A stretch of DNA of 49,435 bases, from positions 1-49,435 of the IMG/VR virus record IMGVR_UViG_2526164669_000023. One strand, 5' to 3'. Shown here piece by piece: positions 1 through 14,268 of the stretch (within the stretch, counting starts at the first letter, position 1; each line of letters begins with the position of its first letter). This DNA comes from a virus. Lineage: Duplodnaviria > Heunggongvirae > Uroviricota > Caudoviricetes. Below the pieces are notes generated by a model. That model was given only the letters and a program-made list of their open reading frames with translations. It searched no databases and was not told where the DNA came from. The position numbers and the translations under genes are program-made.

Positions 1-1236
1 CTACGATAACCGCGCATTCAACATGGCTACCTGTTCGTCGTTCATGTCATCAATCCACATACCGTAAATTTCATACACCATCTGCGCAGTTTCATGCCCC
101 ATCTGGCTGGCTATAAACGCCGGGTTCGCTCCTGCCGTCAACAGCCAGCAGGCAAAAGTATGCCGCGTATGGTACGGATTACGGCGGCGAATACCAGCAC
201 GTTTTACTGCTGCATTCCATCTCGCACCCAAACTGCTTACCGAGTAATAAGGTTTCTGTTTTCCGTTACACACTCTGGGCATGAAAACAAAATGCAGTTT
301 TTGCTTTTCGGTTCTGCCGTACTCCCGATGATAAAAAGTGATTTCGCTTTTGCGATGATGCCCGGTCAGTTTGTATTGCTCCTTCAGTGCTTCAAGAGCA
401 GGCTGCAGTAGTGTTACCGTCCGGATCCCCGCATTTGTTTTTGGGGGACCGAACATATCCAGTATCGTCAGGTTTCTTCTGACATTCACAACTCCCTTCT
501 CGAAATCCACATCCTCCCACGCCAGAGCAGCCAGTTCCCCGTGACGAAGCCCGGAGTAAACGGCAAATTTCCACAAGTTCTGGCTCTGTCCTTTTTCACT
601 TTCCATTAATGCATTGAATTCTGTTTTAGATAACGGATCAGGCTTTATTCTGTTTCGCTGTAATTTTTTTACTCCTTCAAATGGTTTGGTTGATATAAAT
701 CCCGACTGATACGCAAAACGCAACAGCGAACAGAGCTGGGCGATATAGTTATCAACTGTGCGCACGGTTCTTCCTTTTTTGTTGGATCTTGGATTATCCA
801 GGTAAAGCGTTTCTCCATGCAGCAGTTCATTCCGGTAGTTTAAGATATCGCTATAACGAATATGTGATATCGGGGTACTTTCACAAATTATTATTCTGAG
901 TGTTTTTAATTGTGATTTCGTTTTCTTCATTGTGTTTGTTGTTAACTCTGTCTCTTTAATTTTTGTCCAGATATCACAAAGCTCTCCGAACGTTTTTATG
1001 ACTCTCGTTGTCACCATTTTTGCCCCAGTGCTGGACTGGGGAAAACGTCTTAAATACTCAAATTCACCGGAGTTTATTTCATGAACTATCAGCGCTCTTA
1101 AATTTCCGGCCTTTTTAATATTACTGTTTGTAATCTCCCAGCCTTTTAATGTTTCCCGACATCGTTTTCCTCGAAACATGAACCAGATGCGAATGTATCT
1201 ACCTCTAATCTCGACACCTGTTGGTAATTTAGACAT
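1..1236 (-). CDS. intR: Phage integrase, tyrosine recombinase (Rac-type)
   Basis: 411-aa ORF; C-terminal tyrosine-recombinase region (HTRHTFA...ASQMGHE); first gene of a Rac-like early arm; window starts at its stop codon. Confidence 0.85.
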   Translation of the reverse strand: MSKLPTGVEIRGRYIRIWFMFRGKRCRETLKGWEITNSNIKKAGNLRALIVHEINSGEFEYLRRFPQSSTGAKMVTTRVIKTFGELCDIWTKIKETELTTNTMKKTKSQLKTLRIIICESTPISHIRYSDILNYRNELLHGETLYLDNPRSNKKGRTVRTVDNYIAQLCSLLRFAYQSGFISTKPFEGVKKLQRNRIKPDPLSKTEFNALMESEKGQSQNLWKFAVYSGLRHGELAALAWEDVDFEKGVVNVRRNLTILDMFGPPKTNAGIRTVTLLQPALEALKEQYKLTGHHRKSEITFYHREYGRTEKQKLHFVFMPRVCNGKQKPYYSVSSLGARWNAAVKRAGIRRRNPYHTRHTFACWLLTAGANPAFIASQMGHETAQMVYEIYGMWIDDMNDEQVAMLNARLS

Positions 1237-1237
1237 A

Positions 1238-1453
1238 TCATGAGTCTTTGATAAACTGATTTATCTTTGGATAGTTGTACCAGATAATCCCTCGTTTGCT
1301 GTCTGGCTTACCTAAAGGAGATACTCGTTTGAAGTGGAAGCCCTCCACCCAACAGTTCTGGCGGTATGCTTCAATTTGTCTGGCCCCCAGACCAGTGCGA
1401 AGCATCAGGCCGTATTCAACCATCCACTCTTCATTAAAGATTACTTGTGCCAT
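1238..1453 (-). CDS. xisR: Excisionase-like protein (Rac XisR/YdaQ-like)
   Basis: Small ORF immediately upstream of int on the same strand; 71 aa from the internal Met [10 protein letters not shown], matching the length I recall for Rac YdaQ. Confidence 0.6.
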
Positions 1454-1531
1454 CGCATCACCTCTGGCAGGCGCCAATGTTAGACTGAAATTGACGCCCG
1501 ATGTTGATTATTAATAATCAGCTATGAAGTT

Positions 1532-1741
1532 TTAATTTGAATACAATGCAATTCTCGAGGACTGAAGTTTCTCGCAATTAAAATTTATCAGTTTTACTTT
1601 CTGCTCTCTGGAAACGCCTGCTTCTTTTTTACCTGAGAGCATTTTTTCGCATTCTGATTTCGTTAGTTTAGATTTTGAATATCTTGTCCAGTTAGTAGGA
1701 GTGCCACCTTCCTTTTCAATAGTGGCGGTAATTTTATACAT
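1532..1741 (-). CDS. ydaC: Rac-type small protein YdaC-like
   Basis: 69 aa from MYKITATIEKEGG; position between lar and xis as in Rac; start chosen by length recall. Confidence 0.5.
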   Translation of the reverse strand: MYKITATIEKEGGTPTNWTRYSKSKLTKSECEKMLSGKKEAGVSREQKVKLINFNCEKLQSSRIALYSN

Positions 1742-1928
1742 GAACACCTCCATTATTATTTCCAGTGGTTCGTTTATTCCATCTTTCGAGTGCTTCTTTT
1801 TCACTTCCACCATAACCGGTTCGGGATTCGCATCCGTTACACTTCGCTCGGTAATATCCTGAAATGGCTTTCACCGTTACTGATGGACAACCACAAAATG
1901 GACATGGTTTAACATTGTCATATCTCAT
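1734..1928 (-). CDS. ralR: Restriction alleviation protein Lar (RalR)
   Basis: 64-aa product MRYDNVKPCPFCGCPSVTVKAISGYYRAKCNGCESRTGYGG with Lar-family Cys motif; directly upstream of recT as in Rac. Confidence 0.8.
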   Translation of the reverse strand: MRYDNVKPCPFCGCPSVTVKAISGYYRAKCNGCESRTGYGGSEKEALERWNKRTTGNNNGGVHV

Positions 1929-1984
1929 AATCTTTCTCATAAAAAATATTTCAAGTTGGCGGTGCATTACACCGCCAGGCTGAA

Positions 1985-2794
1985 TTATTCCTCTGAATTA
2001 TCGATTACACTGTATTCCCCGGTTAATACAGAGGAATCTGCAGGATCGATTGTCAGTGGTTCCTTTTCATCCATTGATACTGCACGCTGGATCTCAATTG
2101 ATACGGGCAGATATTTGAACAGGCGACGAATAGCCGTTTTCTTTGCCATTTCTTCCCAGTGAGTTACCCACGGCCCGTTATTACCAGCTTTACTCAGGCT
2201 GCGCACCAGCTCAATCTGTTTGCGCGTCATAACTTCAAACTGAGTACCTCCGTCTTTCAGTCTTGCGACAGCATAGACGTGGGTAACCGGGGCATCTTCG
2301 TTTTCTCCCGGGCGGTGTATTAACTTTTCATCAAGGCCAAATTCGAAGCTAAACTCGTCACCTTCACGGACAACACGGGCTGACAGGCTGGCGATTTGAC
2401 CAGAACGGCGAGCCAGATCAATCATGCCGCGATAGCCAATGATTAGCTGAACGTTCTTTTTACCGCTCTTTTCGTTTTTATTACCAAAAGGCAGTAAATA
2501 TGCATGACCGAGGGCGCTACCTGGCTCAAGTCCGAGCTGTGAACACTGTACGATCGCACTGACAAAACTCATAGTGTCACAGTTTCCTAACGCCGGAACT
2601 TTACGAATTTCTGTGGTGGCGATACGGATCATACGTTCAGCCGTCATATGGCGTGGAAGAGCTGCTGCCAGTTGCTCTTTCATTGATGGCTGGTTAATAA
2701 AACTAATCACGTCGCTATTTTTAACTGCTGCTGGTGCACGGTTTCCCTGAGTTTTTTGCAGATCGGCTTTTGCGATTGGTGGTTGCTTAGTCAT
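1985..2794 (-). CDS. recT: Recombinase RecT (single-strand annealing protein)
   Basis: 269-aa product from [16 protein letters not shown] matches the RecT sequence I recall; the track ORF extends 19 codons upstream of the likely start. Confidence 0.9.
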
Positions 2795-5387
2795 TTGCAT
2801 ATTCCTTAGCCCAGCGGGGCAGTGATAATGTCTTAATAGCTGGCCATTCATCGGTATTCAGGCAGTCAGACAGGGTTCGCAGATTGCGGTGATATTCCTG
2901 TTGACCTGCCAGTTTTGCTTCTTCGCCCATCATGAAAATTTCAACCGGATAACGTCCGCATTCAATAGTTGTGCTGGCAACCAGAAAAACGAAAGTTGGC
3001 TGCACTCCAAACTGTGCTTCATAACCGTCACTGTAGAATGCATCCTGAACGTGATAGCGGTAGTCGTAATAAGCGGTTTTGAATCGTTGAATATCCGCCG
3101 TAGTTTTCACGTCCATGATCCAGTGAAATTCAGGGATAATTTTGTCCGGACGGCACCGACACAAAATTCCTGTTTCAGGATCTTCCCAGTAAATTGATGA
3201 TTCAGCGTGTCCGGCGCTTTCAACAAGCCATTGCCCCAGCGGCAAAGCCATAACGCTTTGATACATGAGTTCAATTTTCCGGCCTTCTTCCGCAGTGATA
3301 ACCGTTTTTCCTGTGCTTGCGCATTCCATCAGAAACGCTTTCTCTTCTTCTTTTCCGGCGTTTGTACGGCGGTTAAATTCAGGTGCTACGATAAAGCGGT
3401 TACTGAATTCTTCCGGTTCAAGTACCCGGCAGTGGAAAGCAGTTCCTAAATCGAGCGTTTTTGTCTTTGTGGTGTCCACGGGGGCATTTTTACGCCACAA
3501 ATATAGTGCCGGAGTATCAGCAATGTCATCGAGCTGAGACTTACTGATACCGGGACCCGCGTGGTAATTCTCATTCGAAATTCCGTAATAAATACCTGGC
3601 TCTATGTCTTCTACGATTACGGGATCTGCGACTTCGCCAGTTTCATCACTGCAATCGCGATGCGGATCGCTACCAGCATTCTCATTGTGCGGATGTTCAG
3701 CGCCTTCCATTTCCTCCGGATCATTTTCCTTAGCTTCAACCTGACTCTCTTCATCGAATGTTTCCTGGTATGTTGCGTCGCCCATCACCGCACCACAGTC
3801 AGGGCAGTTATCCCCGCCAGTCTGGCCGCAGGCATTGCAGGCTATTTCCGGTTCCTGTTGCACTACTGGCTCAGGTTGATTCATATCTGGGCTGGTTTTT
3901 TCCGTTTCTGGCTGGTTCTGGTACACACAATCGCGAGTCTGGATCCCCTTTACCCATTTCGGATCGTTCGGGTCGCTAATTCCGTCAACAAATTCACCAC
4001 GTGATGCAGCAAGCAATTTATCGGCATCGACAGGATTTTTTGATGGAATGTTTTTCCGGGCTTCATGGAGTTCTGCCCGCAGTTCCTGATATTTCGCATC
4101 AACAGAATTTACCTGTGACTGAGCATCCAGCGGCTGCGTGTCCTGATGATGTTCAGTTGCGTCCGGTTCCATTGTTTCAGCCTCTCCCTGTTCAACTGCC
4201 GTTGTTCCAGATGGTTGCGGTTTTTCTTCATCATCCTGTTTTCCTTCTTCTGTTACTCGCTGCGGCATCGGGGCAGAGGAGCGACCGCAGGCAATATCCA
4301 CGATTTCCGGATCAGGGTTGGCATGATCGGTTTCAGTCAGTACTTTGTTCAGATATTCAGTGACGTGCGCGGGGATGACCTCGATCCCAATTGGTGCTTC
4401 TTTTACGGACGCAACCACGATGGCGCGGGAATAATCCAGCCCGCCAGGCATGGTGATGAATTTGTCGCGGAAAACAGAAAAGGGCGGTTTATTTTCAGCG
4501 ATAATTTCCTCAATGCGTTTAGCGTGTGCCGGATGAAGGTTATAGATGTCCAGATCCATTGAACGGGCCAGTACGCCAGTGGCTACGTCGCGCGCCAGTG
4601 ACGTCAGATCGTGTACGAAACCTTCGCCGCGATCGGTGAGGTTTCCGCCGCCAGCATTAGCACCGGAAGCCGTGCGAGTGATGTGTGAAACACGATTACC
4701 CTTCATCCACTCTTTTGTCAGCAGTCCTCGATCGGTGTAGTCAGCGTTCAGGTATGCTTCGAAAAAAGCAGTTATCAGTCCCAGGTTTGAATTACCAGGA
4801 TTAGGGAAAACTTTGTCAGTGTCACGAACCAGTTTGTGGAGTTCGCGAATTTCCAGCGGGTCGAGCAGGCTGGTTTTGTGGGAAACAGCCAGGGCAGTAA
4901 CAGCCGGTAGTTCTTCAGCCCGAGCAATGTGTAATGCCTGGAGTCCGTCGCGTGAAACGTGCGTTACCGGTTTTTCGCTGCCGTGTTGAGCAAGCCAACG
5001 AATGGGCAGTTCCTGGCCAGAAATTGGGAGTAGCATATTCTCCTCAATCTCAGTCATGTCTTCGCCGTTGACGTTGGTATTGCCTTGATAGTGAGCGTTG
5101 TCTGGTGCTGCTCCCGGTTTTAGTTCCCATGTCATGGAGTCTTTGCTGAGTTGATAGCGTTCACTCCAGGTAAAATCGATCTCACCTTCAGCGGGCAGGT
5201 CATTAACGACAGGAAAATTCGTGGCAACAGCTTTAAAATAGCTGCTCAGTTTTTTACCTGACTTAACGATCAGGTAGTCCAGAGTGGCACAGGTCGATTC
5301 AAAATCGTTGCTTGCCCACAGGACGACGTCAGGTTCACCGGATGATTTTTTCGCTTTCCGTAACAGGAAGAGTGGTTTTGTGCTCAT
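2787..5387 (-). CDS. recE: Exodeoxyribonuclease VIII RecE
   Basis: 866-aa ORF; N-terminus [24 protein letters not shown] and the length match K-12 RecE; overlaps recT start by 8 nt. Confidence 0.9.
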
Positions 5388-5488
5388 TGTTTTTTAACCT
5401 CAACTCAGATTAAAATTCGTTTTGTTCAGTGAATGATCTTGCCGGATACACACTGTTCATAGCCTGCGCCATACGCAGGCTATTTCTT

Positions 5489-5764
5489 TCAGATTTCACC
5501 TTTTAATTTCATTGCAATTAGAGTTGCCAGAAATTCGGCTTTTTTTTCTGCGGGCAGATTCTTTCCGATATGCACCAGGCACATTTTTTTGACACCTTCA
5601 TCAAGTGTTTTTACGTTGCCTGATGGACCATCGATATCAACCACAGTGAATGGGGTTTCTTTATTTTCTGTTTTAATTACGTAGCCAATGCGCTTTCCTT
5701 CCAGATTCACCTCGTGAACAATGTCATCGGTAGTTACAACAGTGGCTTCATAATTGGTAATCAT
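5489..5764 (-). CDS. racC: RacC protein
   Basis: 91 aa from MITNYEATVVTTDDIVHEV; Rac gene order. Confidence 0.8.
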   Translation of the reverse strand: MITNYEATVVTTDDIVHEVNLEGKRIGYVIKTENKETPFTVVDIDGPSGNVKTLDEGVKKMCLVHIGKNLPAEKKAEFLATLIAMKLKGEI

Positions 5765-5838
5765 GTTTTTCTCCTTAATTAAGGTTGAGCGAATACCTGC
5801 CATTTCTGGCATAAATTCAGTTTCGAATAGTCAATTAA

Positions 5839-6009
5839 TTAAAGTTCATGTGCCATCTGGTCTTTTTCGGCACAAGCTTCACTGCAATATTTTCTCGGTT
5901 CGTCTTTTGATAAAATCCCGTGCATGAAGTGAAGCATTCTTTCAATAGCTTTGCTTTCTTCAACGTCTTTTTTGCAAAGGTGGTAAGCACATTTTATTTT
6001 CTTAGTCAT
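5839..6009 (-). CDS. ydaE: Small Cys-rich protein, YdaE-like
   Basis: ORF below the track size cutoff, between racC and kilR; start codon overlaps the kilR stop. My reading gives a 56-aa Cys-containing product only if a T-run near 5938-5941 is T3; homopolymer count and the left boundary (5838/5839) are uncertain. Confidence 0.4.
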   Translation of the reverse strand: MTKKIKCAYHLCKKDVEESKAIERMLHFMHGILSKDEPRKYCSEACAEKDQMAHEL

Positions 6010-6230
6010 CACCATGACTCCGCCTTTACAGGTAAACCATCACGACCGAGGAAGACTTTAATCATGCGGTCAGTAATGCATGTTTTTGTGGTCAGGTTAC
6101 GAATATATAGTTTTCGCTTTTTAATATTGTTTGCCGAGGCAATATATGTCCGGCCTTCATGAAGAACATAATCGCCAGGAGTCACACACTGACGTGGTAT
6201 TTCATCAGTTCCGAAGTGATGTGCAATCAT
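6009..6230 (-). CDS. kilR: Cell-division inhibitor KilR
   Basis: 73 aa from [32 protein letters not shown]; matches recalled KilR; Rac position. Confidence 0.85.
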
Positions 6231-6671
6231 AATTATCTCCATTTTTACAAATGAACTTTGTTGATGCGGTGCCTGGTGCCTCCAGGTGACTGCAACCAGT
6301 TAACAATTACAGTCGGCTTTCCCACCCAAACCAATAAGGACTAACATGACTTTTAACTGTGCCACGTGCGCTTAGCCGCATTCACCGCATCACAAAATTC
6401 ACTTTAAAAAGGGCGGACATCAGCCGAACTTCAAGAAAAAAACTGATGCCGCCAGGACTACACACAGCAATGTCGTTATTTACAACCGGAGGCGCACTCC
6501 CACCATTTAAATTTAACAGACAAGACCGACTCTTTATGGATATCGGAAATGCGCCTTCGTGTTGTGCCCGGTTTTATTTCACCACCTCCGGGCTTCGGTG
6601 GTCTCGGCTATACCCCTACAGCGAGAGCTTGTGTTAACATTTCAATACCCTTACAGTTGAGAGTTATTGAT

Positions 6672-7160
6672 ATGTTGGATGTATTTACTCCATTGTTGAA
6701 ACTTTTTGCTAACGAGCCACTCGAAAGACTTATGTATACGATTATCATTTTTGGTCTCACTCTCTGGCTGATACCGAAAGAGTTTACTGTCGCATTCAAT
6801 GCTTATACTGAAATACCTTGGCTCTTTCAGATTATCGTTTTTGCCTTTTCTTTCGTGGTCGCCATTTCCTTCTCAAGATTGCGAGCACATATTCAAAAGC
6901 ATTATTCATTACTACCAGAGCAACGAGTATTGCTTCGTTTATCTGAGAAAGAAATCGCTGTATTTAAAGATTTCCTTAAAACAGGAAATCTTATTATCAC
7001 TTCTCCTTGCCGTAACCCGGTTATGAAAAAATTAGAACGGAAGGGCATCATTCAACATCAGAGTGATAGCGCAAACTGTTCTTATTATCTCGTCACCGAA
7101 AAATACTCCCATTTTATGAAGTTATTCTGGAACAGCAGGAGTAGACGTTTTAATCGTTAG
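6672..7160 (+). CDS. sieB: Superinfection exclusion protein B
   Basis: 162 aa from internal Met MLDVFTPLLKLFANEPLER; membrane-protein-like N-terminus; opposite strand to the early leftward operon as in Rac. Confidence 0.8.
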   Translation: MLDVFTPLLKLFANEPLERLMYTIIIFGLTLWLIPKEFTVAFNAYTEIPWLFQIIVFAFSFVVAISFSRLRAHIQKHYSLLPEQRVLLRLSEKEIAVFKDFLKTGNLIITSPCRNPVMKKLERKGIIQHQSDSANCSYYLVTEKYSHFMKLFWNSRSRRFNR

Positions 7161-7312
7161 CTTACTGTGTGCTTCTCCAACCATCGGCGCGCACCAGTTT
7201 CGGTTTTAAATGTTTTGCTTTTGGTATACGTCATGGCAGTGAACGTTCCATCCTGGTTGGGGAACACGCCGCACACCAGGGATTCGTTGTTGCCGAGGTC
7301 GATTTTTTGCAT
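7157..7312 (-). CDS. ydaF: Small protein YdaF-like
   Basis: 51-aa ORF MQKIDLGNNESLVCGVFPNQDGTFTAMTYTKSK... read by hand on the minus strand; below track cutoff. Confidence 0.5.
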   Translation of the reverse strand: MQKIDLGNNESLVCGVFPNQDGTFTAMTYTKSKTFKTETGARRWLEKHTVS

Positions 7313-7321
7313 TTTGCGAAT

Positions 7322-7456
7322 CTCACATCTTGTTGCTACGTATAGCGACTTCTGCCTGCCAGAGATCCCAGTCGTTGCTGCGTAAAGCCTGCACAGCCTG
7401 GTTGTAAGTGATACCGCAACAATCCATCAAATACTGAACTACTTCGTAATGCACCA
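7322..7456 (-). CDS. ydaG: Small protein YdaG-like
   Basis: 44-aa ORF MVHYEVVQYLMDCCGITYNQAVQALRSNDWDLWQAEVAIRSNKM; good RBS (AAGGGGAGAG) upstream; first gene of the leftward operon. Confidence 0.5.
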
Positions 7457-7619
7457 TCTTATCTCTCCCCTTAACGCCGGGTGGCGGAACTAACTGCTGC
7501 ACTGCAAAATTTGAATCCCGCCGTCATGTTCATACGCCTCGGGCTGGCTACTTAACCCCTTACCACTGCCTGGTAACTCGAAGTATTGCCCGGCGTTCTG
7601 TGGGGCGGGGTGGGTGGTA

Positions 7620-7680
7620 TGCTGGAACTATAGGTAATGCCTAATTGATTGTCAATAGGCTATGCCTAATGTTTTGAGCG
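7620..7680 (-). promoter_or_regulatory. Leftward early promoter (PL-like) with operator half of a 24-bp inverted repeat
   Basis: Minus strand shows TTGACA (7650-7655), 17-bp spacer, TATAGT (7627-7632); operator-like 24-mer at 7648-7671 is the near-perfect reverse complement of 8294-8317. Confidence 0.55.
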
Positions 7681-7765
7681 TAACCTAATAGGTGATGGCG
7701 ACAGCAGAAAGTGATGGGGGGGTTAAATAACGGAATCCAGGAGTTTTCCGTCAGACCATATAAGT

Positions 7766-8242
7766 TTAAGTTCCAGTTTTTGTGATGTTCTGGCTTTTCC
7801 GTTCAGATTCTAGAGCTTTCAGATACTTACCCACTTTCATTTCCATCGCTGCTATGTAGGCGCGAACATCGTGGTCAACCCAATCTGGTTCTGTAGCATT
7901 TCCAGATAACAGGAAAGCTACAATCGCTCTTATTTCATCAGAGGCTGCTTGATAAAGGTTGTTTATATCTAAAAGTTCACTTTTTGTATCTGAATTGGTG
8001 GGAGTTGGTATGGGGTATTCGTTAAGCCCCCAATGCTCTGGACCAACAACATCAGAAAAGAAACGCCATAATTCTGGAAGTTTATCTTTACTTATAGAGC
8101 CTTTCTTAATCCAGTCATAAATTGATGGTGGTTGGACTTTGAAGTGGCGTGCGACCTCCGCCTTTGATTTGACGGATCCCGATGCGATTTTTTTGTTAAT
8201 GGCCTGCTCTATCGCTCGGCCTAAGTCTTTACCACTAAGCAT
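7766..8242 (-). CDS. racR: Prophage repressor RacR
   Basis: 158-aa ORF; N-terminus MLSGKDLGRAIEQAINKKIASGS (HTH region); divergent from ydaS as in Rac. Confidence 0.85.
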   Translation of the reverse strand: MLSGKDLGRAIEQAINKKIASGSVKSKAEVARHFKVQPPSIYDWIKKGSISKDKLPELWRFFSDVVGPEHWGLNEYPIPTPTNSDTKSELLDINNLYQAASDEIRAIVAFLLSGNATEPDWVDHDVRAYIAAMEMKVGKYLKALESERKSQNITKTGT

Positions 8243-8365
8243 TGCTTAATATTCTCCTATGCGCATTACATTAGGCAATCCCTACCCTTACCGCATTAGG
8301 CACAGCCTATTGACAATTGCGTTAGGCGTCGCCTAATATTTCTGTGTGTTTTTGGAGTTCATTCG
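8243..8365. promoter_or_regulatory. racR-ydaS divergent promoter/operator region
   Basis: Repeated ATTAGGC / GCCTAAT motifs, palindrome TTAGGCGTCGCCTAA, and TTGACA (8310-8315) followed by TAATAT about 18 bp downstream, oriented toward ydaS. Confidence 0.55.
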
Positions 8366-8662
8366 ATGAAAAAAGAGAACTATTCATTCAAGCAAGCTTG
8401 TGCTGTTGTCGGTGGGCAATCAGCAATGGCTAGGCTTTTAGGTGTATCACCTCCAAGCGTAAATCAATGGATCAAAGGGGTACGTCAATTGCCTGCCGAG
8501 AGATGTCCAGCAATTGAACGTGCAACAAGAGGTGAGGTTCTGTGCGAAGAACTTCGTCCTGATATTGACTGGTCATATTTACGACGTTCGGCATGTTGTT
8601 CGCAGAATATGTCAGTGAAGCAACTAAATGACAGTAACAAATCCTCATTTGATCATACCTGA
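8366..8662 (+). CDS. ydaS: Cro-like HTH protein YdaS
   Basis: 98-aa ORF with HTH-like N-terminus; first rightward gene opposite racR. Confidence 0.8.
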   Translation: MKKENYSFKQACAVVGGQSAMARLLGVSPPSVNQWIKGVRQLPAERCPAIERATRGEVLCEELRPDIDWSYLRRSACCSQNMSVKQLNDSNKSSFDHT

Positions 8663-8684
8663 AACATCAAGAGGCAAATGATTC

Positions 8685-9107
8685 ATGAAAATCAAGCATG
8701 AGCACATCGAATCAGTGTTGTTTGCCCTAGCAGCCGAAAAAGGGCAGGCATGGGTAGCCAATGCAATTACTGAAGAATATCTGCGCCAGGGGGGCGGCGA
8801 ATTGCCCCTGGTTCCAGGCAAGGACTGGAACAATCAGCAGAATATCTATCACCGTTGGTTGAAAGGTGAAACGAAAACGCAAAGAGAAAAAATTCAGAAG
8901 CTGATCCCAGCAATTCTGGCAATCCTTCCGCGCGAGCTGCGTCACCGACTCTGCATCTTCGATACCCTGGAACGCCGTGCATTACTGGCGGCGCAGGAAG
9001 CGTTAAGTACGGCAATTGATGCGCATGATGATGCAGTCCAGGCCGTTTACCGGAAAGCGCATTTCAGCGGCGGCGGTTCTTCCGACGATTCTGTCATTGT
9101 TCATTAA
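8685..9107 (+). CDS. ydaT: YdaT (toxic early protein / CII-like position)
   Basis: 140-aa ORF following ydaS; Rac gene order. Confidence 0.75.
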   Translation: MKIKHEHIESVLFALAAEKGQAWVANAITEEYLRQGGGELPLVPGKDWNNQQNIYHRWLKGETKTQREKIQKLIPAILAILPRELRHRLCIFDTLERRALLAAQEALSTAIDAHDDAVQAVYRKAHFSGGGSSDDSVIVH

Positions 9108-9119
9108 GCAAAAGTTTCC

Positions 9120-9977
9120 ATGCTGTTTGTGCTTATTCTAAGCCACCGGGCAGCATCATACGGGGCAATTATGGCCGCATTACCATACATGCAACTGTAC
9201 ATAGCTGATTACCTGGCTGACACCATGCATTTGTCAGCAGAGGAGCATGGTGCGTATTTGTTGCTGATGTTCAATTACTGGCAAACAGGAAAGCCAATAC
9301 CTAAAAACAGGCTGGCAAAAATTGCCCGTCTGACTAACGAGCGATGGGCTGATGTTGAACCATCCTTGCAGGAGTTTTTTTGCGATAACGGCGAGGAATG
9401 GGTGCATCTTCGGATTGAGGAAGATCTGGCATCAGTCAGGGAAAAATTAACCAAAAAATCAGCCGCAGGAAAAGCATCTGTTCAGGCCAGAAGAAGCAGA
9501 AAGGAAGCAGATGTTCAAACAAAACAAGAGAGAAATTTAACAGGTGTTCAAACAGATGTTGAAGTGGTGTTTGAACATGATGTCAACACAAAGGCAACTA
9601 ATAAAGATACAGATAAAGATCTAAAAACAGATCCCCCCCTAAATCCCCCCCGGGGGAATCGAGGTGTTAAAAAGTTTGACCCTCTGGATATTGCTTTGCC
9701 GAACTGGATTTCTGTCTCGCTTTGGCGTGAGTGGGTTGAATTTCGCCAGGCATTGCGTAAACCGATTCGAACGGAGCAGGGCGCTAACGGGGCGATACGG
9801 GAGCTGGAAAAATTCCGCCAGCAGGGTTTTTCACCTGAGCAGGTGATTCGATACAGCATCGCCAATGAATACCAGGGCTTGTTCGCGCCAAAAGGTGTTC
9901 GACCTGAGACGTTACTCCGACAGGTTAACACCGTCTCGTTACCGGATAGTGCGATCCCGCCAGGCTTCAGGGGGTAA
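9120..9977 (+). CDS. ydaU: Replication-initiation-like protein YdaU
   Basis: 285-aa ORF in the lambda O-equivalent position upstream of the DnaC-like gene. Confidence 0.7.
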   Translation: MLFVLILSHRAASYGAIMAALPYMQLYIADYLADTMHLSAEEHGAYLLLMFNYWQTGKPIPKNRLAKIARLTNERWADVEPSLQEFFCDNGEEWVHLRIEEDLASVREKLTKKSAAGKASVQARRSRKEADVQTKQERNLTGVQTDVEVVFEHDVNTKATNKDTDKDLKTDPPLNPPRGNRGVKKFDPLDIALPNWISVSLWREWVEFRQALRKPIRTEQGANGAIRELEKFRQQGFSPEQVIRYSIANEYQGLFAPKGVRPETLLRQVNTVSLPDSAIPPGFRG

Positions 9978-9983
9978 CTGACC

Positions 9984-10718
9984 ATGAAAAATATTGCGGC
10001 AGGCGGCATTCTTGAACGTATCCGCAGACTGGCCCCGCCACATGTAACCGCCCCATTCAAAACGGTAGCGGAGTGGCGCGAGTGGCAACTTTCCGAAGGC
10101 CAGAAACGTTGTGAGGAGATCAACCGTCAGAATCGTCAGTTGCGGGTGGAAAAAATTCTGAACCGCTCTGGCATCCAGCCATTGCACCGCAAATGCTCGT
10201 TTGCGAATTACCAGGTGCAGAACGACGGTCAGCGATACGCGTTGAACCAGGCGAAATCTATCGCTGATGAACTGATGACCGGGTGTACAAATTTTGCGTT
10301 CAGCGGAAAACCTGGTACCGGAAAAAACCATCTGGCGGCGGCTATCGGGAATCGCCTGCTGAAAGATGGCCAGACAGTGATTGTGGTTACCGTGGCTGAT
10401 GTCATGAGTGCTCTACACGCCAGCTATGACGACGGGCAATCAGGCGAAAAATTTTTGCGGGAACTGTGCCAAGTGGATCTGCTGGTTCTTGATGAAATTG
10501 GCATTCAGCGCGAGACAAAAAACGAGCAGGTGGTGCTGCACCAGATTGTTGATCGCCGGACAGCGTCGATGCGCAGCGTGGGGATGCTGACAAACCTGAA
10601 CTATGAGGCCATGAAAACATTGCTCGGCGAGCGGATTATGGATCGCATGACCATGAACGGCGGACGCTGGGTGAATTTTAACTGGGAGAGCTGGCGTTCG
10701 AATGTTGGCTTGCGATGA
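9984..10718 (+). CDS. ydaV: DnaC/IstB-like replication ATPase YdaV
   Basis: 244-aa ORF with Walker A GKPGTGKNHL and Walker B LLVLDEIG; lambda P-equivalent position. Confidence 0.8.
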   Translation: MKNIAAGGILERIRRLAPPHVTAPFKTVAEWREWQLSEGQKRCEEINRQNRQLRVEKILNRSGIQPLHRKCSFANYQVQNDGQRYALNQAKSIADELMTGCTNFAFSGKPGTGKNHLAAAIGNRLLKDGQTVIVVTVADVMSALHASYDDGQSGEKFLRELCQVDLLVLDEIGIQRETKNEQVVLHQIVDRRTASMRSVGMLTNLNYEAMKTLLGERIMDRMTMNGGRWVNFNWESWRSNVGLR

Positions 10719-10826: not shown

Positions 10827-11960
10827 ATGACTTGTCAAAGTATAATGAGAGATTGCATGAAGATTAACCATGAGGATTTAATTGATCTTATAAAGGCATC
10901 ACTGGATGCGAATTACAGCGAAGTTCGTAGTGTTAGTAATCGCATTGTTCGCGCAATTAGCGCTCAGGATGCTGACTTAGCAAAGCAAATTAAGTCTATC
11001 ATCCGTAAAAAAGGGGTACCATTACGTAGCTCTGGTTATACGGACAGTTTGCCCTTAGATCCGAAATCAAGGATGCCTTTAGTGGAAGAAGTCGAATGGC
11101 CTGCAACGCCTTTATTTCTTTCTGATGAATCACAGCATATTTTTCATGCTTTTATTCAGAATGTTATCCATCAGAATGAACTTATAGAGAATGGAATTCC
11201 AGGTAAATTGAATTTACTTCTTTCTGGTCCGCCAGGAACAGGTAAGACATTAGTCGCTGGTCATATCGCATCCAAATTAAACAAACCGCTCTATGTTGTT
11301 CGGCTTGACTCTGTTATTTCTTCTCTGTTAGGTGATACAGCGAAGAACCTAAGACAGATTTTTGACTTCGTCCCGACAAAAGATGGTGTGTTATTTCTTG
11401 ATGAAGTAGATGCGGTTGCTAAGCTTCGTGATGACAATCAGGAAGTTGGAGAGTTAAAAAGAGTTGTTAACACATTAATCCAAGGACTGGATTCTCTTGA
11501 TGATTCTGCTATTGTCATTGCTGCAACTAATCATTCGAAGCTATTGGATCCAGCAATTTGGAGACGTTTCCCATATAAAATTAGCTTTGGTTTGCCTGGA
11601 CAAGATGTCAGATGTGCTATGTGGGAACATTTTTTATTTAGAGATGATACGGATTCATTTCTAAGTAAAATGTTATCTATCATATCAACTGGGCTAACAG
11701 GTGCTGATATTGAAAATATCAGTTTATCTGCAAGAAGGCATAGTGTTTTATCTGGCAATGGACTGGATATACCATCTGTTGTTTATGCTATATTGAATAG
11801 CGTTGCAGATAGTACAGCAATTCCTTTTGGTAAGGATATAAATTCGAGTGTTAAGAAAAATTTAGCGAAGGAATTATCTAAGTTTAAATTATCACAGGCA
11901 GATATCGGTAGACTTTTAAATGTGAGCAGGCAAACTATATCAGGTTATTTCAAGGAATAA
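10827..11960 (+). CDS. Classical-clade AAA+ ATPase with C-terminal HTH (candidate defense ATPase, IetA-like)
   Basis: Walker A LLLSGPPGTGKT, Walker B VLFLDEVDA, sensor-1 IAATN, Arg-finger region LDPAIWRRFPY; C-terminal XRE-like HTH LSQADIGRLLNVSRQTISGYF. AT-rich relative to flanks. Alternative start at Met11 (10857). Confidence 0.75.
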   Translation: MTCQSIMRDCMKINHEDLIDLIKASLDANYSEVRSVSNRIVRAISAQDADLAKQIKSIIRKKGVPLRSSGYTDSLPLDPKSRMPLVEEVEWPATPLFLSDESQHIFHAFIQNVIHQNELIENGIPGKLNLLLSGPPGTGKTLVAGHIASKLNKPLYVVRLDSVISSLLGDTAKNLRQIFDFVPTKDGVLFLDEVDAVAKLRDDNQEVGELKRVVNTLIQGLDSLDDSAIVIAATNHSKLLDPAIWRRFPYKISFGLPGQDVRCAMWEHFLFRDDTDSFLSKMLSIISTGLTGADIENISLSARRHSVLSGNGLDIPSVVYAILNSVADSTAIPFGKDINSSVKKNLAKELSKFKLSQADIGRLLNVSRQTISGYFKE

Positions 11961-11962
11961 TT

Positions 11963-12538
11963 ATGGTCAGTGAAAATAAAGCTAAAATTTTAAACCCAAT
12001 AATTACTTTATTGAAGCCACCAACGCCAGAGGCGATTCCTGTTGGAGGGAAAAGTCGTAAAAATATTGTTGATTCACGGTTGAAACAACAGCGTGAAGTT
12101 TTATCCTCAGAGATAGATTCCATATTAAGAACAGAAGGTGAAATAGTTAAACATCGTGGTAAGTATCATATAGTAACAAGTATGTTTGAGGACTCATATG
12201 CACCATCGTTTATACCAGATTCATTATTCTGTCCCAGTGTTGAATGTAAGATAGTTGCACCAGCATACAATGGATATTTAATTGAGGTCAATAGCAATGC
12301 TTTATTGAAGTTGAAAAATAAAATTAATAATGCAAAAGCTATTACTGATCTTGTGGATATTTCAAGGGTTAGAAGTGTTAGTCTTTTTGATTCATCTTGT
12401 ACATTGCGAAATAGTAGCCTTGATTCGCTCTGGAATACAGTTAAGGCTTTGAATACATTTCAATTTAATATGTGGCTTATGCCTTTTTTTGATGAGCTTT
12501 CTAGAGAGTCTGTAGTTTCAACTTTTTTAAATTTTTAA
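11963..12538 (+). CDS. Hypothetical protein, middle gene of ATPase/protease cassette
   Basis: 191-aa ORF starting 3 nt after the ATPase stop; AT-rich; no motif I recognise. Confidence 0.55.
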   Translation: MVSENKAKILNPIITLLKPPTPEAIPVGGKSRKNIVDSRLKQQREVLSSEIDSILRTEGEIVKHRGKYHIVTSMFEDSYAPSFIPDSLFCPSVECKIVAPAYNGYLIEVNSNALLKLKNKINNAKAITDLVDISRVRSVSLFDSSCTLRNSSLDSLWNTVKALNTFQFNMWLMPFFDELSRESVVSTFLNF

Positions 12539-12741
12539 ATGATGGTATCATCGCTTTTGGTTATTCAGATTTTGACATAAAAACTATAAATCAAGATGCT
12601 GCTGTTGGCGGGGATAATATAGTCATAGTTCCACCGTTACTTATTGAAGCGATAAAAAAGTATCGTAAATCAGGTCAAGCATCCGTTACCGTCACTGTAG
12701 AGACTAAAGATAGTTTAAACAGGATACTGAATAGCAGTGCT

Positions 12742-14229
12742 GTGTATCGTATAGATCCTGTATCACCGCTAAACGTAACAGATACTCCTCCTGGTAATGG
12801 GGCTGAACCTGTTCCACCAATATTGGGGGATAAGAAAATGCCAACTGTAGTTGTAATTGATGGTGGGTGTAATGCGAAATCATATTCAAATTTAAATATA
12901 TATAAACTAAATCCGCTAATTCCAGATCATGATGCAGATTGTAAACATGGTAATAAAGTTGTATCGTTGTTATGTCACGGTTATGCTTGGAATAATAATT
13001 TAAACTTACCTAAATTGCAATGTAGCTATATAAGTGCACAGGCTATTGCGAAAAGGGGAGTGTTGAAACAACCAACTCCGGATCAATTTTTAAATTATTT
13101 AAGAATGGTTGCTGACAAAACGTCATCTATCGCCAAGGTCTGGAATCTTTCGTTTAATGAAGACGCTCCTCATTATAACTGTAATGAGATAAGTTATCTG
13201 GGACATAAAATCAGTTTGTTGGCTCGAGAATTTGGTATTCTGCCTGTAATATCTATCGGTAATGTTTCAAAGAACGAAAAACAAAAAAATCTTTGTCCGC
13301 CCGCAGATTGTGAGTCAGGAATTACAGTAAGTGGGAGAACGGCCAATCATGAAGGAATGCCTTCAGATGGCTGTCCTTTAAGTCGGAAAGGCCCTGCTCC
13401 TGCAGGAATGAAAAAACCTGAGTTATCATGGTTTTCTCGAGTTAGGGTGATAGGTGGAACAGTAGATATCGGAACAAGTTTTAGTGCTCCATTAGTTTCA
13501 TCTATTGCTGCTCATACCTTTTCGAATATTAAAAATGCCACTCCTGATTTGGTTAGGGCATTATTGATTAACAGGAGTGAGTTGCTTTCTCATGATGATG
13601 CATTAGGATGGGGGACTCCTTGGGATGGCGATTTACTGCCATGGTATTGTAAAGATGGCAGTGTCACATTAACGTGGATATCTAAGTTAAAGGCTGGGGC
13701 TGCTTATTATTGGAACGATCTTCCATTACCTCCAGAGATGTTAGTTAATGGTAAATTAGTTGGTGAGATATCTCTGACAGCTATACTAAAACCTAAGGTT
13801 TCTGAGTTCGGAAGTGAGAACTATTTTTCGACAAGGCTCCAATGTTCGTTACAGGCAATAAAAGAAATTAACGGAACGCTAAAAACAGAAAGCCTTCTTG
13901 GGTCAATGAAAGAATCTTCTGTTGATGAGCGTAAAGCTAGAAATGAACTTTCTAAATGGAGCCCTATTCGCCATCATGCAGAGTCGTTTAAGAGAAAAGA
14001 TATAACAGGGTGTAAAATTCGGCTTTATGCTAGGATATATGCTAGAGATTTGTATCAGTATGGGTTAAATAACCAACGGGAGCTTGAAGAGCAAGAGGTT
14101 TCCTTTGTTTTAACTTTTAAAAGTGTATCAGGATCGTCCTCAATATATACATCAATGGTTCAGCAACTTGGTGTTTATGTTGAAAGTGCTGTTATAGATA
14201 ATCACATTAACATAGATGTTAATAAGTGA
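12742..14229 (+). CDS. Subtilisin-like serine protease (peptidase S8) with C-terminal extension (IetS-like)
   Basis: D-H-S triad motifs in canonical order: VVVIDGGC, CKHGNKVV, GTSFSAPLVSSIAA; about 250 extra C-terminal residues. Track start is GTG; an ATG (MPTVVVIDGG) lies 32 codons downstream; in-frame stop at 12616. Confidence 0.75.
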   Translation: MYRIDPVSPLNVTDTPPGNGAEPVPPILGDKKMPTVVVIDGGCNAKSYSNLNIYKLNPLIPDHDADCKHGNKVVSLLCHGYAWNNNLNLPKLQCSYISAQAIAKRGVLKQPTPDQFLNYLRMVADKTSSIAKVWNLSFNEDAPHYNCNEISYLGHKISLLAREFGILPVISIGNVSKNEKQKNLCPPADCESGITVSGRTANHEGMPSDGCPLSRKGPAPAGMKKPELSWFSRVRVIGGTVDIGTSFSAPLVSSIAAHTFSNIKNATPDLVRALLINRSELLSHDDALGWGTPWDGDLLPWYCKDGSVTLTWISKLKAGAAYYWNDLPLPPEMLVNGKLVGEISLTAILKPKVSEFGSENYFSTRLQCSLQAIKEINGTLKTESLLGSMKESSVDERKARNELSKWSPIRHHAESFKRKDITGCKIRLYARIYARDLYQYGLNNQRELEEQEVSFVLTFKSVSGSSSIYTSMVQQLGVYVESAVIDNHINIDVNK

Positions 14230-14268
14230 TGTACAGAAACTGATTTATTATTATGTTAATTAATGTAT

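Follow-up and report, generated by a model that had tools for sequence, protein, structure and literature searches.

The repressor gene racR of a Rac-like prophage lies between two near-identical 24-bp sequences that face each other as an inverted repeat. The question raised by this locus is what the two arms do, and whether the left arm, which is found downstream of racR, does the same work as the right arm upstream of it. Few transcription factors of E. coli K-12 are essential, and RacR is among them. The DNA analyzed here, called the window, is a stretch of 49,435 nucleotides that contains a full-length Rac-like E. coli prophage, running from intR at position 1 to tail-fiber genes at 49 kb. 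Over the 1.4 kb around the repeat, the identity is 100% with a bovine E. coli strain and 99.7% with Rac of E. coli K-12. Within 7300-8700, the four differences from K-12 are at 7811, 8003, 8141, and 8292, and the operator sequences are the same as in K-12.

The genes around racR and the inverted repeat

The racR gene (7766-8242, minus strand) encodes a repressor of 158 amino acids and is positioned entirely between the two modules described below. RacR is without a Peptidase S24 domain and has no Pfam match except for a weak helix-turn-helix (HTH). A search for solved structures related to RacR gave none at an E-value of up to 1. On the right, the rightward operon begins with ydaS (8366-8662, plus strand), whose product is Cro-like (PF15943, PF14549 P22_Cro, and HTH_3; PMC5917428). 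The next gene, ydaT (8685-9107, plus strand), encodes a CII-like regulator (PMC11879457, PMC9986795). On the left, ydaG, ydaF, kilR, ydaE, racC, recE, recT, ralR, rcbA, xisR, and intR (1-7457, minus strand) form a leftward operon that is presumed to be driven by PL, the leftward early promoter. Here, ydaG occupies 7323-7457 and ydaF 7157-7312, both on the minus strand, and sieB (6672-7160, plus strand) is encoded on the strand opposite to the operon. The original description of Rac kil is said to be that of Conter et al. 1996 (J Bacteriol). The gene order is that of a lambdoid immunity region, in which a Cro-like gene is first in the rightward direction and the recombination, kil, xis, and int genes are found in the leftward direction. 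The layout is also lambdoid, with racR between divergent promoters at 7655-7627 and 8310-8339.

The left arm of the repeat (7648-7671) is ATTGTCAATAGGCTATGCCTAATG and the right arm (8294-8317) is CATTAGGCACAGCCTATTGACAAT. The original prediction, made from the DNA sequence, was that these arms form a 24-bp inverted repeat, and this is borne out: the reverse complement of 7648-7671 matches 8294-8317 at 23 of 24 positions, and the single mismatch falls in the central N3 of an operator. In the window, this is the sole 24-nt inverted repeat with at most one mismatch and with arms no more than 3 kb apart. Such a repeat was found in none of 100 dinucleotide-preserving shuffles of the window. A repeat search could extend the pair to 35 nt at 83% identity. 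This extension was dropped because the 11 added nucleotides match at 6 of 11 positions, which is chance level, and are unconserved elsewhere.

The arms are part of a larger cluster of sites. The GCCTAAT/ATTAGGC half-sites that had been seen to surround both arms belong to real, complete sites. When one mismatch is allowed, TAGGCNNNGCCTA has five matches in the window, and all of them are in this region, at 7631, 7656, 8272, 8297, and 8323. By chance, 0.91 matches are expected, and a count of five was reached in 1 of 100 shuffles. Taken together, the motif count and the shuffles exclude a chance origin of the repeat and of the motif cluster. The promoter scan also located the predicted TTGACA in both arms, leftward at 7655-7650 and rightward at 8310-8315, and the predicted TATAGT -10 of the leftward promoter at 7632-7627 after a 17-nt spacer.

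The 24-bp identity is composed of one operator, its AT extensions, and the -35 hexamer. The near-perfect identity exaggerates the constraint on the arms, as approximately 20 positions are under constraint (the half-sites, the AT extensions, and the -35) and, in this lineage, the remaining positions match by chance. Differences at N3 and in the flanks of the arms are seen in other E. coli lineages. In other lineages, the identity between the arms is confined to the operator half-sites and the -35.

Two copies of a promoter and operator module

The right half of this arrangement is known from published work. Three GCCTAA/TTAGGC repeats have been noted in the racR-ydaS intergenic region, and RacR gives a three-step shift of this region (PMC5700373). 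The consensus (T/A)TAGGC-N3-GCCTA(T/A) came from DNase I footprints of RacR, which assigned operators to the ydaST promoter, the racR promoters, and the racR ATG (PMC9638921). A later count is four RacR operators (PMC11879457). Binding of RacR to the right sites has been demonstrated by electrophoretic mobility shift assay (EMSA), DNase I footprint, and ChIP-qPCR (PMC5700373, PMC9638921). The transcription start of PydaST was determined by primer extension together with mutagenesis of the -10 (PMC9638921; see also PMC11879457).

In the window, the right copy of the module (8294-8339), when read rightward, is cat-TAGGCACAGCCTA-TTGACA-attgcgt-TAGGCGTCGCCTA-ATAT. The operator TAGGCACAGCCTA (8297-8309) adjoins the -35 of PydaST, and the operator TAGGCGTCGCCTA (8323-8335) is located in the PydaST spacer and overlaps the -10 (PMC9638921 for both). 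The centers of these two sites are 26 bp apart. PydaST itself (8310-8339, plus strand), the PR equivalent, is composed of TTGACA, an 18-nt spacer, and TAATAT (8334-8339), and agrees with the consensus at 10 of 12 positions. Two further operators are found toward racR. One, TAGGCAATCCCTA (8272-8284), has one mismatch and lies in the racR promoter region (PMC9638921). The other, TAAGCATTGCTTA (8236-8248), has two mismatches, and its N3 falls inside the racR ATG, in agreement with the operator spacer that was placed over the racR ATG by footprinting (PMC9638921).

The left copy is a module of ~45 bp on the minus strand (7627-7671), in which a site, a -35, a linker, a second site, and a -10 follow one another. 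Read leftward on the minus strand, it is cat-TAGGCATAGCCTA-TTGACA-atcaat-TAGGCATTACCTA-TAGT. The first putative RacR site, OL1 (TAGGCTATGCCTA, 7656-7668), has two perfect half-sites, adjoins the upstream side of the leftward -35, is conserved in every lineage examined, and is the counterpart of the right operator at 8297. The second putative RacR site, OL2 (TAGGTAATGCCTA, 7631-7643), has one mismatch (TAGGT), fills the spacer, covers the first two nucleotides of the -10, and is the counterpart of the right operator at 8323. The centers of OL1 and OL2 are 25 bp apart. The putative leftward early promoter, PL of Rac, has its -35 TTGACA at 7650-7655 and its -10 TATAGT at 7627-7632, both on the minus strand and separated by 17 nt. 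In the promoter scan, it agrees with the consensus at 11 of 12 positions. Thus two sites are found on the left and four on the right, and in each module one site adjoins the -35 while the other spans the spacer and the -10.

Transcription from the putative PL would start near 7620, as predicted from the position of its -10. The untranslated leader of the leftward operon (7458-7620, minus strand) is ~160 nt long and has a C-rich 5' end. No Rfam family was matched in the leader or over the operators when 6000-10000 was scanned at a permissive threshold. The rightward operon was searched for another PL leader, of the kind expected in a put-like or nut-like pair, and none was found there. On the other side of OL1, the palindrome ACCTAATAGGT (7683-7693) is composed of two near half-sites in everted order, ~26 bp from the OL1 center. 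This palindrome is conserved in E. coli lineages only and is possibly a weak third left site.

The sites in the window have a consensus identical to that of the published operators, O1-O3 and later four, and the right arm is one of them. That work covers the intergenic region and the racR start, and the pair at 7631-7668 downstream of racR is absent from it. The published RacR studies (PMC5700373, PMC9638921, PMC11879457, PMC11014345, and the Jobling letter, PMC5917428) contained no site downstream of racR and no PL of Rac. Literature searches on RacR with ydaG, ChIP, sbcA, and DNA looping returned nothing further, within a coverage that left out most subscription journals, RegulonDB, and EcoCyc. 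The right half is already known. The left half is apparently undescribed, yet it is an expected lambdoid PL/OL and is new for Rac only in being named.

The two arms are very probably the cores of two opposite copies of one early-promoter and operator module, of which the right copy is PydaST and the left copy would be the PL/OL of Rac and would keep the leftward genes off. The shared module would be ATTAGGC-N3-GCCTA, TTGACA, 6-7 nt, and TTAGGC-N3-GCCTA overlapping the -10. The putative PL would be a strong sigma-70 promoter that fires leftward from ~7620 through the 160-nt leader and into ydaG and the following genes up to intR. RacR is predicted to bind and repress at the left copy. Its dimers would bind cooperatively to OL1, against the -35, and to OL2, in the spacer and over the -10, and would occlude RNA polymerase in the way seen at PydaST. 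Both early operons would in this way be kept off by a single repressor, whose loss would directly switch on the recombination, killing, and excision genes. By analogy with its CP-933P counterpart at PL933P (PMC8630535), YdaS may use the same left sites.

Conservation of the left module and expression of the leftward operon

Loci encoding the RacR DNA-binding domain were gathered from GTDB genomes, metagenomes, and IMG/VR viral contigs. Homologues come from Mixta, Morganella, Proteus, and Klebsiella. Many metagenomic contigs, along with Achromobacter and Pigmentiphaga, have the N-terminal domain of RacR (69-84% identity) fused to other C-terminal domains. Among the Achromobacter, Pigmentiphaga, and metagenome homologues, the fused domain can be Peptidase_S24 (PF00717; E-values of 1e-13 and 4e-15), and the operators are unchanged. 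Every RacR-domain homologue found, with a DNA-binding domain of at least 69% identity, keeps TAGGC-N3-GCCTA, and no specificity switch is present among them. In unrelated immunity types at the equivalent position, the PL and PR operators change together.

A pair of sites is present downstream of the repressor in almost every locus with sufficient downstream DNA (~20 lineages). The two exceptions are a decayed Klebsiella sp. locus and a locus where the pair may fall beyond the 3.1 kb available. Each downstream pair is directed away from the repressor and has a spacing of 25 bp (26 bp in a single locus). A TTGAC-type -35 separates its two sites, and the second site is followed by a hexamer that resembles a -10. 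In loci of ~8 kb, the pair is, with few exceptions, the sole match to the motif with at most one mismatch outside of the right operators; one extra single match with one mismatch was seen in three lineages. In 19 lineages with unrelated flanks, the information content of the module is 1.43 bits per column compared to 0.29 for the flanks, and the conservation of the half-sites within this value is partly circular because the loci were picked by motif. That choice does not dictate that a pair is present at all, how it is spaced and oriented, or that a -35 separates its two sites.

Variation among 64 distinct sequences is restricted to N3 and the 6-nt linker. The left -35 is mostly TTGACA in 78 distinct sequences, with the variants TTGACT, TTGACG, TTGATA, and TTTACA, and the -10 at the equivalent place in other lineages is TAATAT, TAACAT, TAATAA, or TACTAT. 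The same operator layout is found in the Klebsiella phage KpF5, an isolated temperate phage. Across lineages, the left pair is ~0.6 to ~4 kb away from the right operators. The slot in between is empty in Rac and elsewhere carries cargo, for example HicAB, a HipA-like kinase, or an HSDR_N-domain protein. Outside of E. coli, the racR-ydaS intergenic region has three sites only.

The 160 nt of leader from the putative start at ~7620 to the ydaG ATG have matches of 80-90% identity in ~2,400 more E. coli genomes, where they fall in unannotated stretches. Two of these places were examined. One is of the CP-933P type, with an HTH repressor, RelB, and ParE, and the other has a LexA-family repressor upstream of ydfA-ydfB-ydfC-dicB. 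When the Rac, CP-933P-type, and LexA-family immunity types are aligned, the homology starts ~3 nt downstream of the -10. TTGAC(A) is found at one aligned position in all three types, with the -35 of the putative PL aligning with that of PL933P, and is followed by immunity-specific DNA. The CP-933P type likewise has PL and PR regions that repeat one module in inverted orientation, and GFP fusions established PL933P as a promoter under repression by PaaR2 and YdaS (PMC8630535). Because of the leader alignment and the verified PL933P, the Rac left module is placed at the left edge of the exchangeable immunity cassette, where PL belongs, and it marks that edge for Rac.

Published expression data bear on the left module as well. 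When racR is lowered by the C protein C.Csp231I, racR is the sole Rac gene to fall; ydaF, ydaG, ydaE, and racC rise ~40-fold, and kilR, ydaC, and ralA rise >70-fold (PMC6765115). Reduction of RacR raises xisR and intR ~100-fold (PMC11014345). CRISPRi with Cascade at +3 or +58 of racR lowers racR RNA 20-fold or 11-fold, respectively, and the leftward genes go up (bioRxiv 10.64898/2026.09.06.749655). Because the leftward genes rise while transcription through racR is blocked, read-through that starts at the racR promoters cannot account for the rise. The rise requires a RacR-sensitive promoter located downstream of racR, for which the left module is the evident candidate. An indirect route to the de-repression of the left genes, via YdaS or YdaT, is conceivable. 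Rho-dependent termination within racR has been given as the cause of kil silencing (PMC4150792). The original prediction had read the arms as an OL/OR-type operator pair for RacR. This reading is supported by the publications on the right arm, the conservation of the left arm, the position of PL933P, and the depletion data, with RacR binding on the left predicted from sequence.

Three other explanations of the arms have been weighed against this one. The left module could be an inactive relic, in which case the leftward de-repression would be an indirect effect of YdaS/YdaT, of excision or copy number, or of relief from Rho and H-NS. Rac of K-12 is a defective prophage, and Rho termination and H-NS silence the region (PMC4150792, PMC11014345), which would fit a relic. 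The present window, though, is a full-length prophage and not the K-12 remnant. Moreover, the module and its promoter hexamers are kept across bacterial orders with unconserved flanks and in an isolated phage, the variation is limited to N3 and the linker, and the equivalent position in CP-933P is a verified repressor-controlled promoter (PMC8630535). A relic is thus improbable. Still less probable, to the point of being hardly credible, is that the repeats are the termini of a small mobile or invertible racR cassette of a transposon-like or invertase type. One gene between near-identical 24-bp inverted repeats does have that appearance, and lambdoid phages exchange their immunity regions as cassettes. 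However, direct repeats are missing from the outer edges, and no transposase or invertase gene is found inside, where racR is the only gene. Elsewhere, the identity between the arms is limited to the half-sites and the -35, and the content and length between the arms vary. Homologous recombination within the shared leader and within ydaT accounts for the exchange itself.

The arms could also act as RNA, either by long-range pairing in a transcript that spans racR or with the left palindrome as a terminator hairpin. A terminator scan does report 7656-7668 as a 5-bp stem followed by a T-rich stretch on the plus strand. That is the wrong strand for racR, and none of the plus-strand genes has its end at this place, with sieB already ending at 7160. 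On the minus strand, TTGACAAT and not a U run comes after the stem. The transcription starts of racR are at the right arm or downstream of it (PMC9638921). The arms are also without covariation, with N3 and the flanks changing independently across lineages, and an RNA role is about as implausible as the mobile cassette.

Possible looping and comparison with other lambdoid immunity regions

If the two modules are opposite copies under RacR control, a further question is whether they are bridged. The centers of the left and right operator pairs are 641 and 692 bp apart. RacR elutes as an octamer in size-exclusion chromatography, and the authors of that work assign the octamer to the four racR-ydaS intergenic sites (PMC11014345). 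The proposal, speculative and made by analogy, is that an octamer bridges the left and right pairs as lambda CI bridges OL and OR. The reported octamer (PMC11014345) makes it no more than plausible. Bridging of the two pairs stands at roughly even odds, with the octamer and the 2+2 geometry for it and the variable distance against it.

The counterpart of this proposal has about an equal chance of being right: both modules would be controlled by RacR but independently, through local cooperative dimers and with no OL-OR bridge, so that it differs from the preferred explanation at looping alone. The ~0.6 to ~4 kb between the modules, and the cargo between them that varies among lineages, speak for independence. 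The 25-bp spacing within a pair already suits local pairwise cooperativity, and the octamer has its published explanation in the four adjacent intergenic sites (PMC11014345). On the other hand, looping by lambda CI likewise tolerates variable distances. Two sites plus two sites is the geometry of the lambda CI octamer, which the reported RacR octamer would match, and the same argument has been made for PaaR2 (PMC8630535). The three intergenic sites outside of E. coli are ill-suited to one octamer on four adjacent sites. Among E. coli lineages, the OL-OR distance differs by 1-3 bp, which is uninformative on helical phasing at this loop size.

A more specific version, in which OL1-OL2 and the two PydaST operators are joined in an octamer loop of ~0.64 kb with consequences for racR autoregulation and read-through, is rather unlikely. 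In such an arrangement, the loop, or OL-bound RacR acting as a roadblock, would also set racR autoregulation. The loop or roadblock would stop racR read-through into the kil/recET operon, which would link it to the unusual zone of Rho-dependent termination that has been reported in racR. If true, a loop holding only the repressor's own gene would be the tightest natural CI-style loop known. The question is directly testable because the loop would be short, with a single gene inside.

Recent work treats RacR mainly as the repressor of ydaS/ydaT. A second operator pair on a leftward promoter would provide a direct mechanism for the 40-100-fold rise of kilR, recET, ralR, xisR, and intR at lowered RacR. 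It would equally be a direct mechanism for the excision of Rac after RacR depletion and for the zygotic induction of the rac recombination functions (PMC5917428). A left PL/OL is expected of any lambdoid prophage and will be of little surprise to the specialist.

One of the closest known systems is CP-933P of E. coli O157:H7, with PaaR2, PR933P, PRM933P, and PL933P. CP-933P is like Rac in its gene order, its ydaT family, and its PL leader, and PaaR2 is an octamer (PMC8630535), as reported for RacR. Unlike Rac, CP-933P has another repressor, whose operator consensus is composed of GTTTAGTAA-type repeats, and carries the paaA2-parE2 toxin-antitoxin pair between the repressor and OL. Its PL is verified, whereas the left promoter of Rac is putative. 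Qin (dicA-dicC, dicBp) also has a short repressor that is not cleaved. Its operators are found between dicA and dicC and between dicA and dicBp (10.1101/2023.04.14.536235). As a further likeness to Rac, ydfA, a DUF1391 gene (compare ydaF), is first in the leftward operon of Qin, which also codes for a cell-division inhibitor. Qin differs from Rac in its repressor family and operator sequence, and dicBp has been characterized experimentally.

Lambda shares with Rac a repressor gene between divergent early promoters, a Cro-like gene first on the right, and recombination, kil, xis, and int genes on the left. In both, operators of one consensus are found at both promoters, ~24-25 bp from center to center and over the -35 and -10. 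CI is an octamer, as is RacR by report (PMC11014345). Unlike CI, RacR lacks an S24 autocleavage domain, and the C-terminal domains of the two repressors are unrelated (PMC11014345). YdaS is reported not to repress racR (PMC9638921), which is a further difference from lambda. The left set of Rac has two clear operators compared to three in lambda. Finally, Rac is without rexAB-type genes between the repressor and OL, and its modules are ~0.64 kb apart, compared to ~2.3-2.4 kb in lambda.

Modularity of the RacR DNA-binding domain and its operators

RacR-type DNA-binding domains are also found fused to a Peptidase_S24 domain of the LexA/CI type. These fusions are encoded in Achromobacter, Pigmentiphaga, and metagenomic relatives, at locus L011 (positions 3001-4098 of that locus), locus L012 (3001-3906), and loci L155, L157, L163, L166, and L170. 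The fusion repressors share ~75% identity with the DNA-binding domain of RacR (residues 1-77), and the operators and the OL/OR layout of their loci are unchanged. The DNA-binding domain and its operators therefore travel together, and the domain for induction or oligomerization is exchanged.

On the right, the E. coli lineages have one operator beyond the number present in any other lineage, as seen when window 8272-8317 is set against L007, L008, L010, and others. In the other lineages, the site adjoining the -35 is TAGGCAATTCCTA. In the E. coli lineages, TAGGCAATTCCTA is followed by an extra ~26-bp unit that carries a new site and the -35. This unit is more similar to OL1, the predicted left operator at 7656-7668, than its neighboring site is, which suggests an origin by duplication or by gene conversion involving the left and right modules.

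On the left, the palindrome ACCTAATAGGT (7683-7693) pairs two near half-sites, arranged in everted order, and lies ~26 bp from the center of OL1. It is kept in all three E. coli lineages (3/3) despite divergence of the adjoining DNA and is missing from other genera. It is a candidate for a weak third site on the left.

In Klebsiella sp. R390 (L009), a racR homologue retains three upstream sites. It has a degraded PR -35, and a left operator pair was not found within 3 kb. This locus is probably a decaying prophage remnant. The 5.2-kb contig JARKOR010000130.1 (L005) is labelled as a Candidatus Nanosynbacter MAG. The RacR that it encodes shows 100% protein identity to that of E. coli, its operators differ from the E. 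coli sequences at a single flanking base, and the bin is almost certainly contaminated by E. coli DNA.

Leader and RNA-like elements of the leftward operon

The leader that runs from the putative PL start to ydaG (7458-7624, minus strand) is ~160 nt long. Approximately 2,400 further E. coli genomes and several induced phages carry it at 80-90% identity, mostly without annotation. At least three unrelated immunity cassettes have this leader downstream of them. Its 5' end, ACCACCCACCCCGCCCCACAG, is C-rich and G-poor and resembles a Rho-loading site. The leader had no match in Rfam and folds with a z-score of only -1.76, and no second copy was found within the window.

Two Rfam matches on the minus strand are located between sieB and kilR: a DicF-like element at 6411-6466 (39.1 bits, under the gathering score of 48) and an STnc100-like element at 6223-6409 (35.5 bits, under the gathering score of 47). 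The DicF-like element keeps the terminator hairpin and differs in its 5' part. These sub-gathering matches fit a reading of the leftward operon as a counterpart of the Qin dicBF operon.

Accessory genes and the repressor-OL slot

Directly after ydaV, the window, which is a full-length relative of Rac, encodes an AAA-family ATPase and an S8 serine peptidase (10857-14230), where K-12 Rac has ydaW, rzpR, and trkG. This region may be a defense or accessory island.

In other lineages, cargo genes occupy the slot that separates the repressor gene from OL (L137, 4648-5802; L168, 6337-6919; L167, 4489-5196; L248, 2428-3582). The cargo is an HSDR_N-domain protein, a HicA/HicB pair, or a HipA-like kinase, and Klebsiella phage KpF5 likewise has an HSDR_N-domain protein there. 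Equivalent positions are occupied by rexAB in lambda and by paaA2-parE2 in CP-933P. The slot is empty in Rac.
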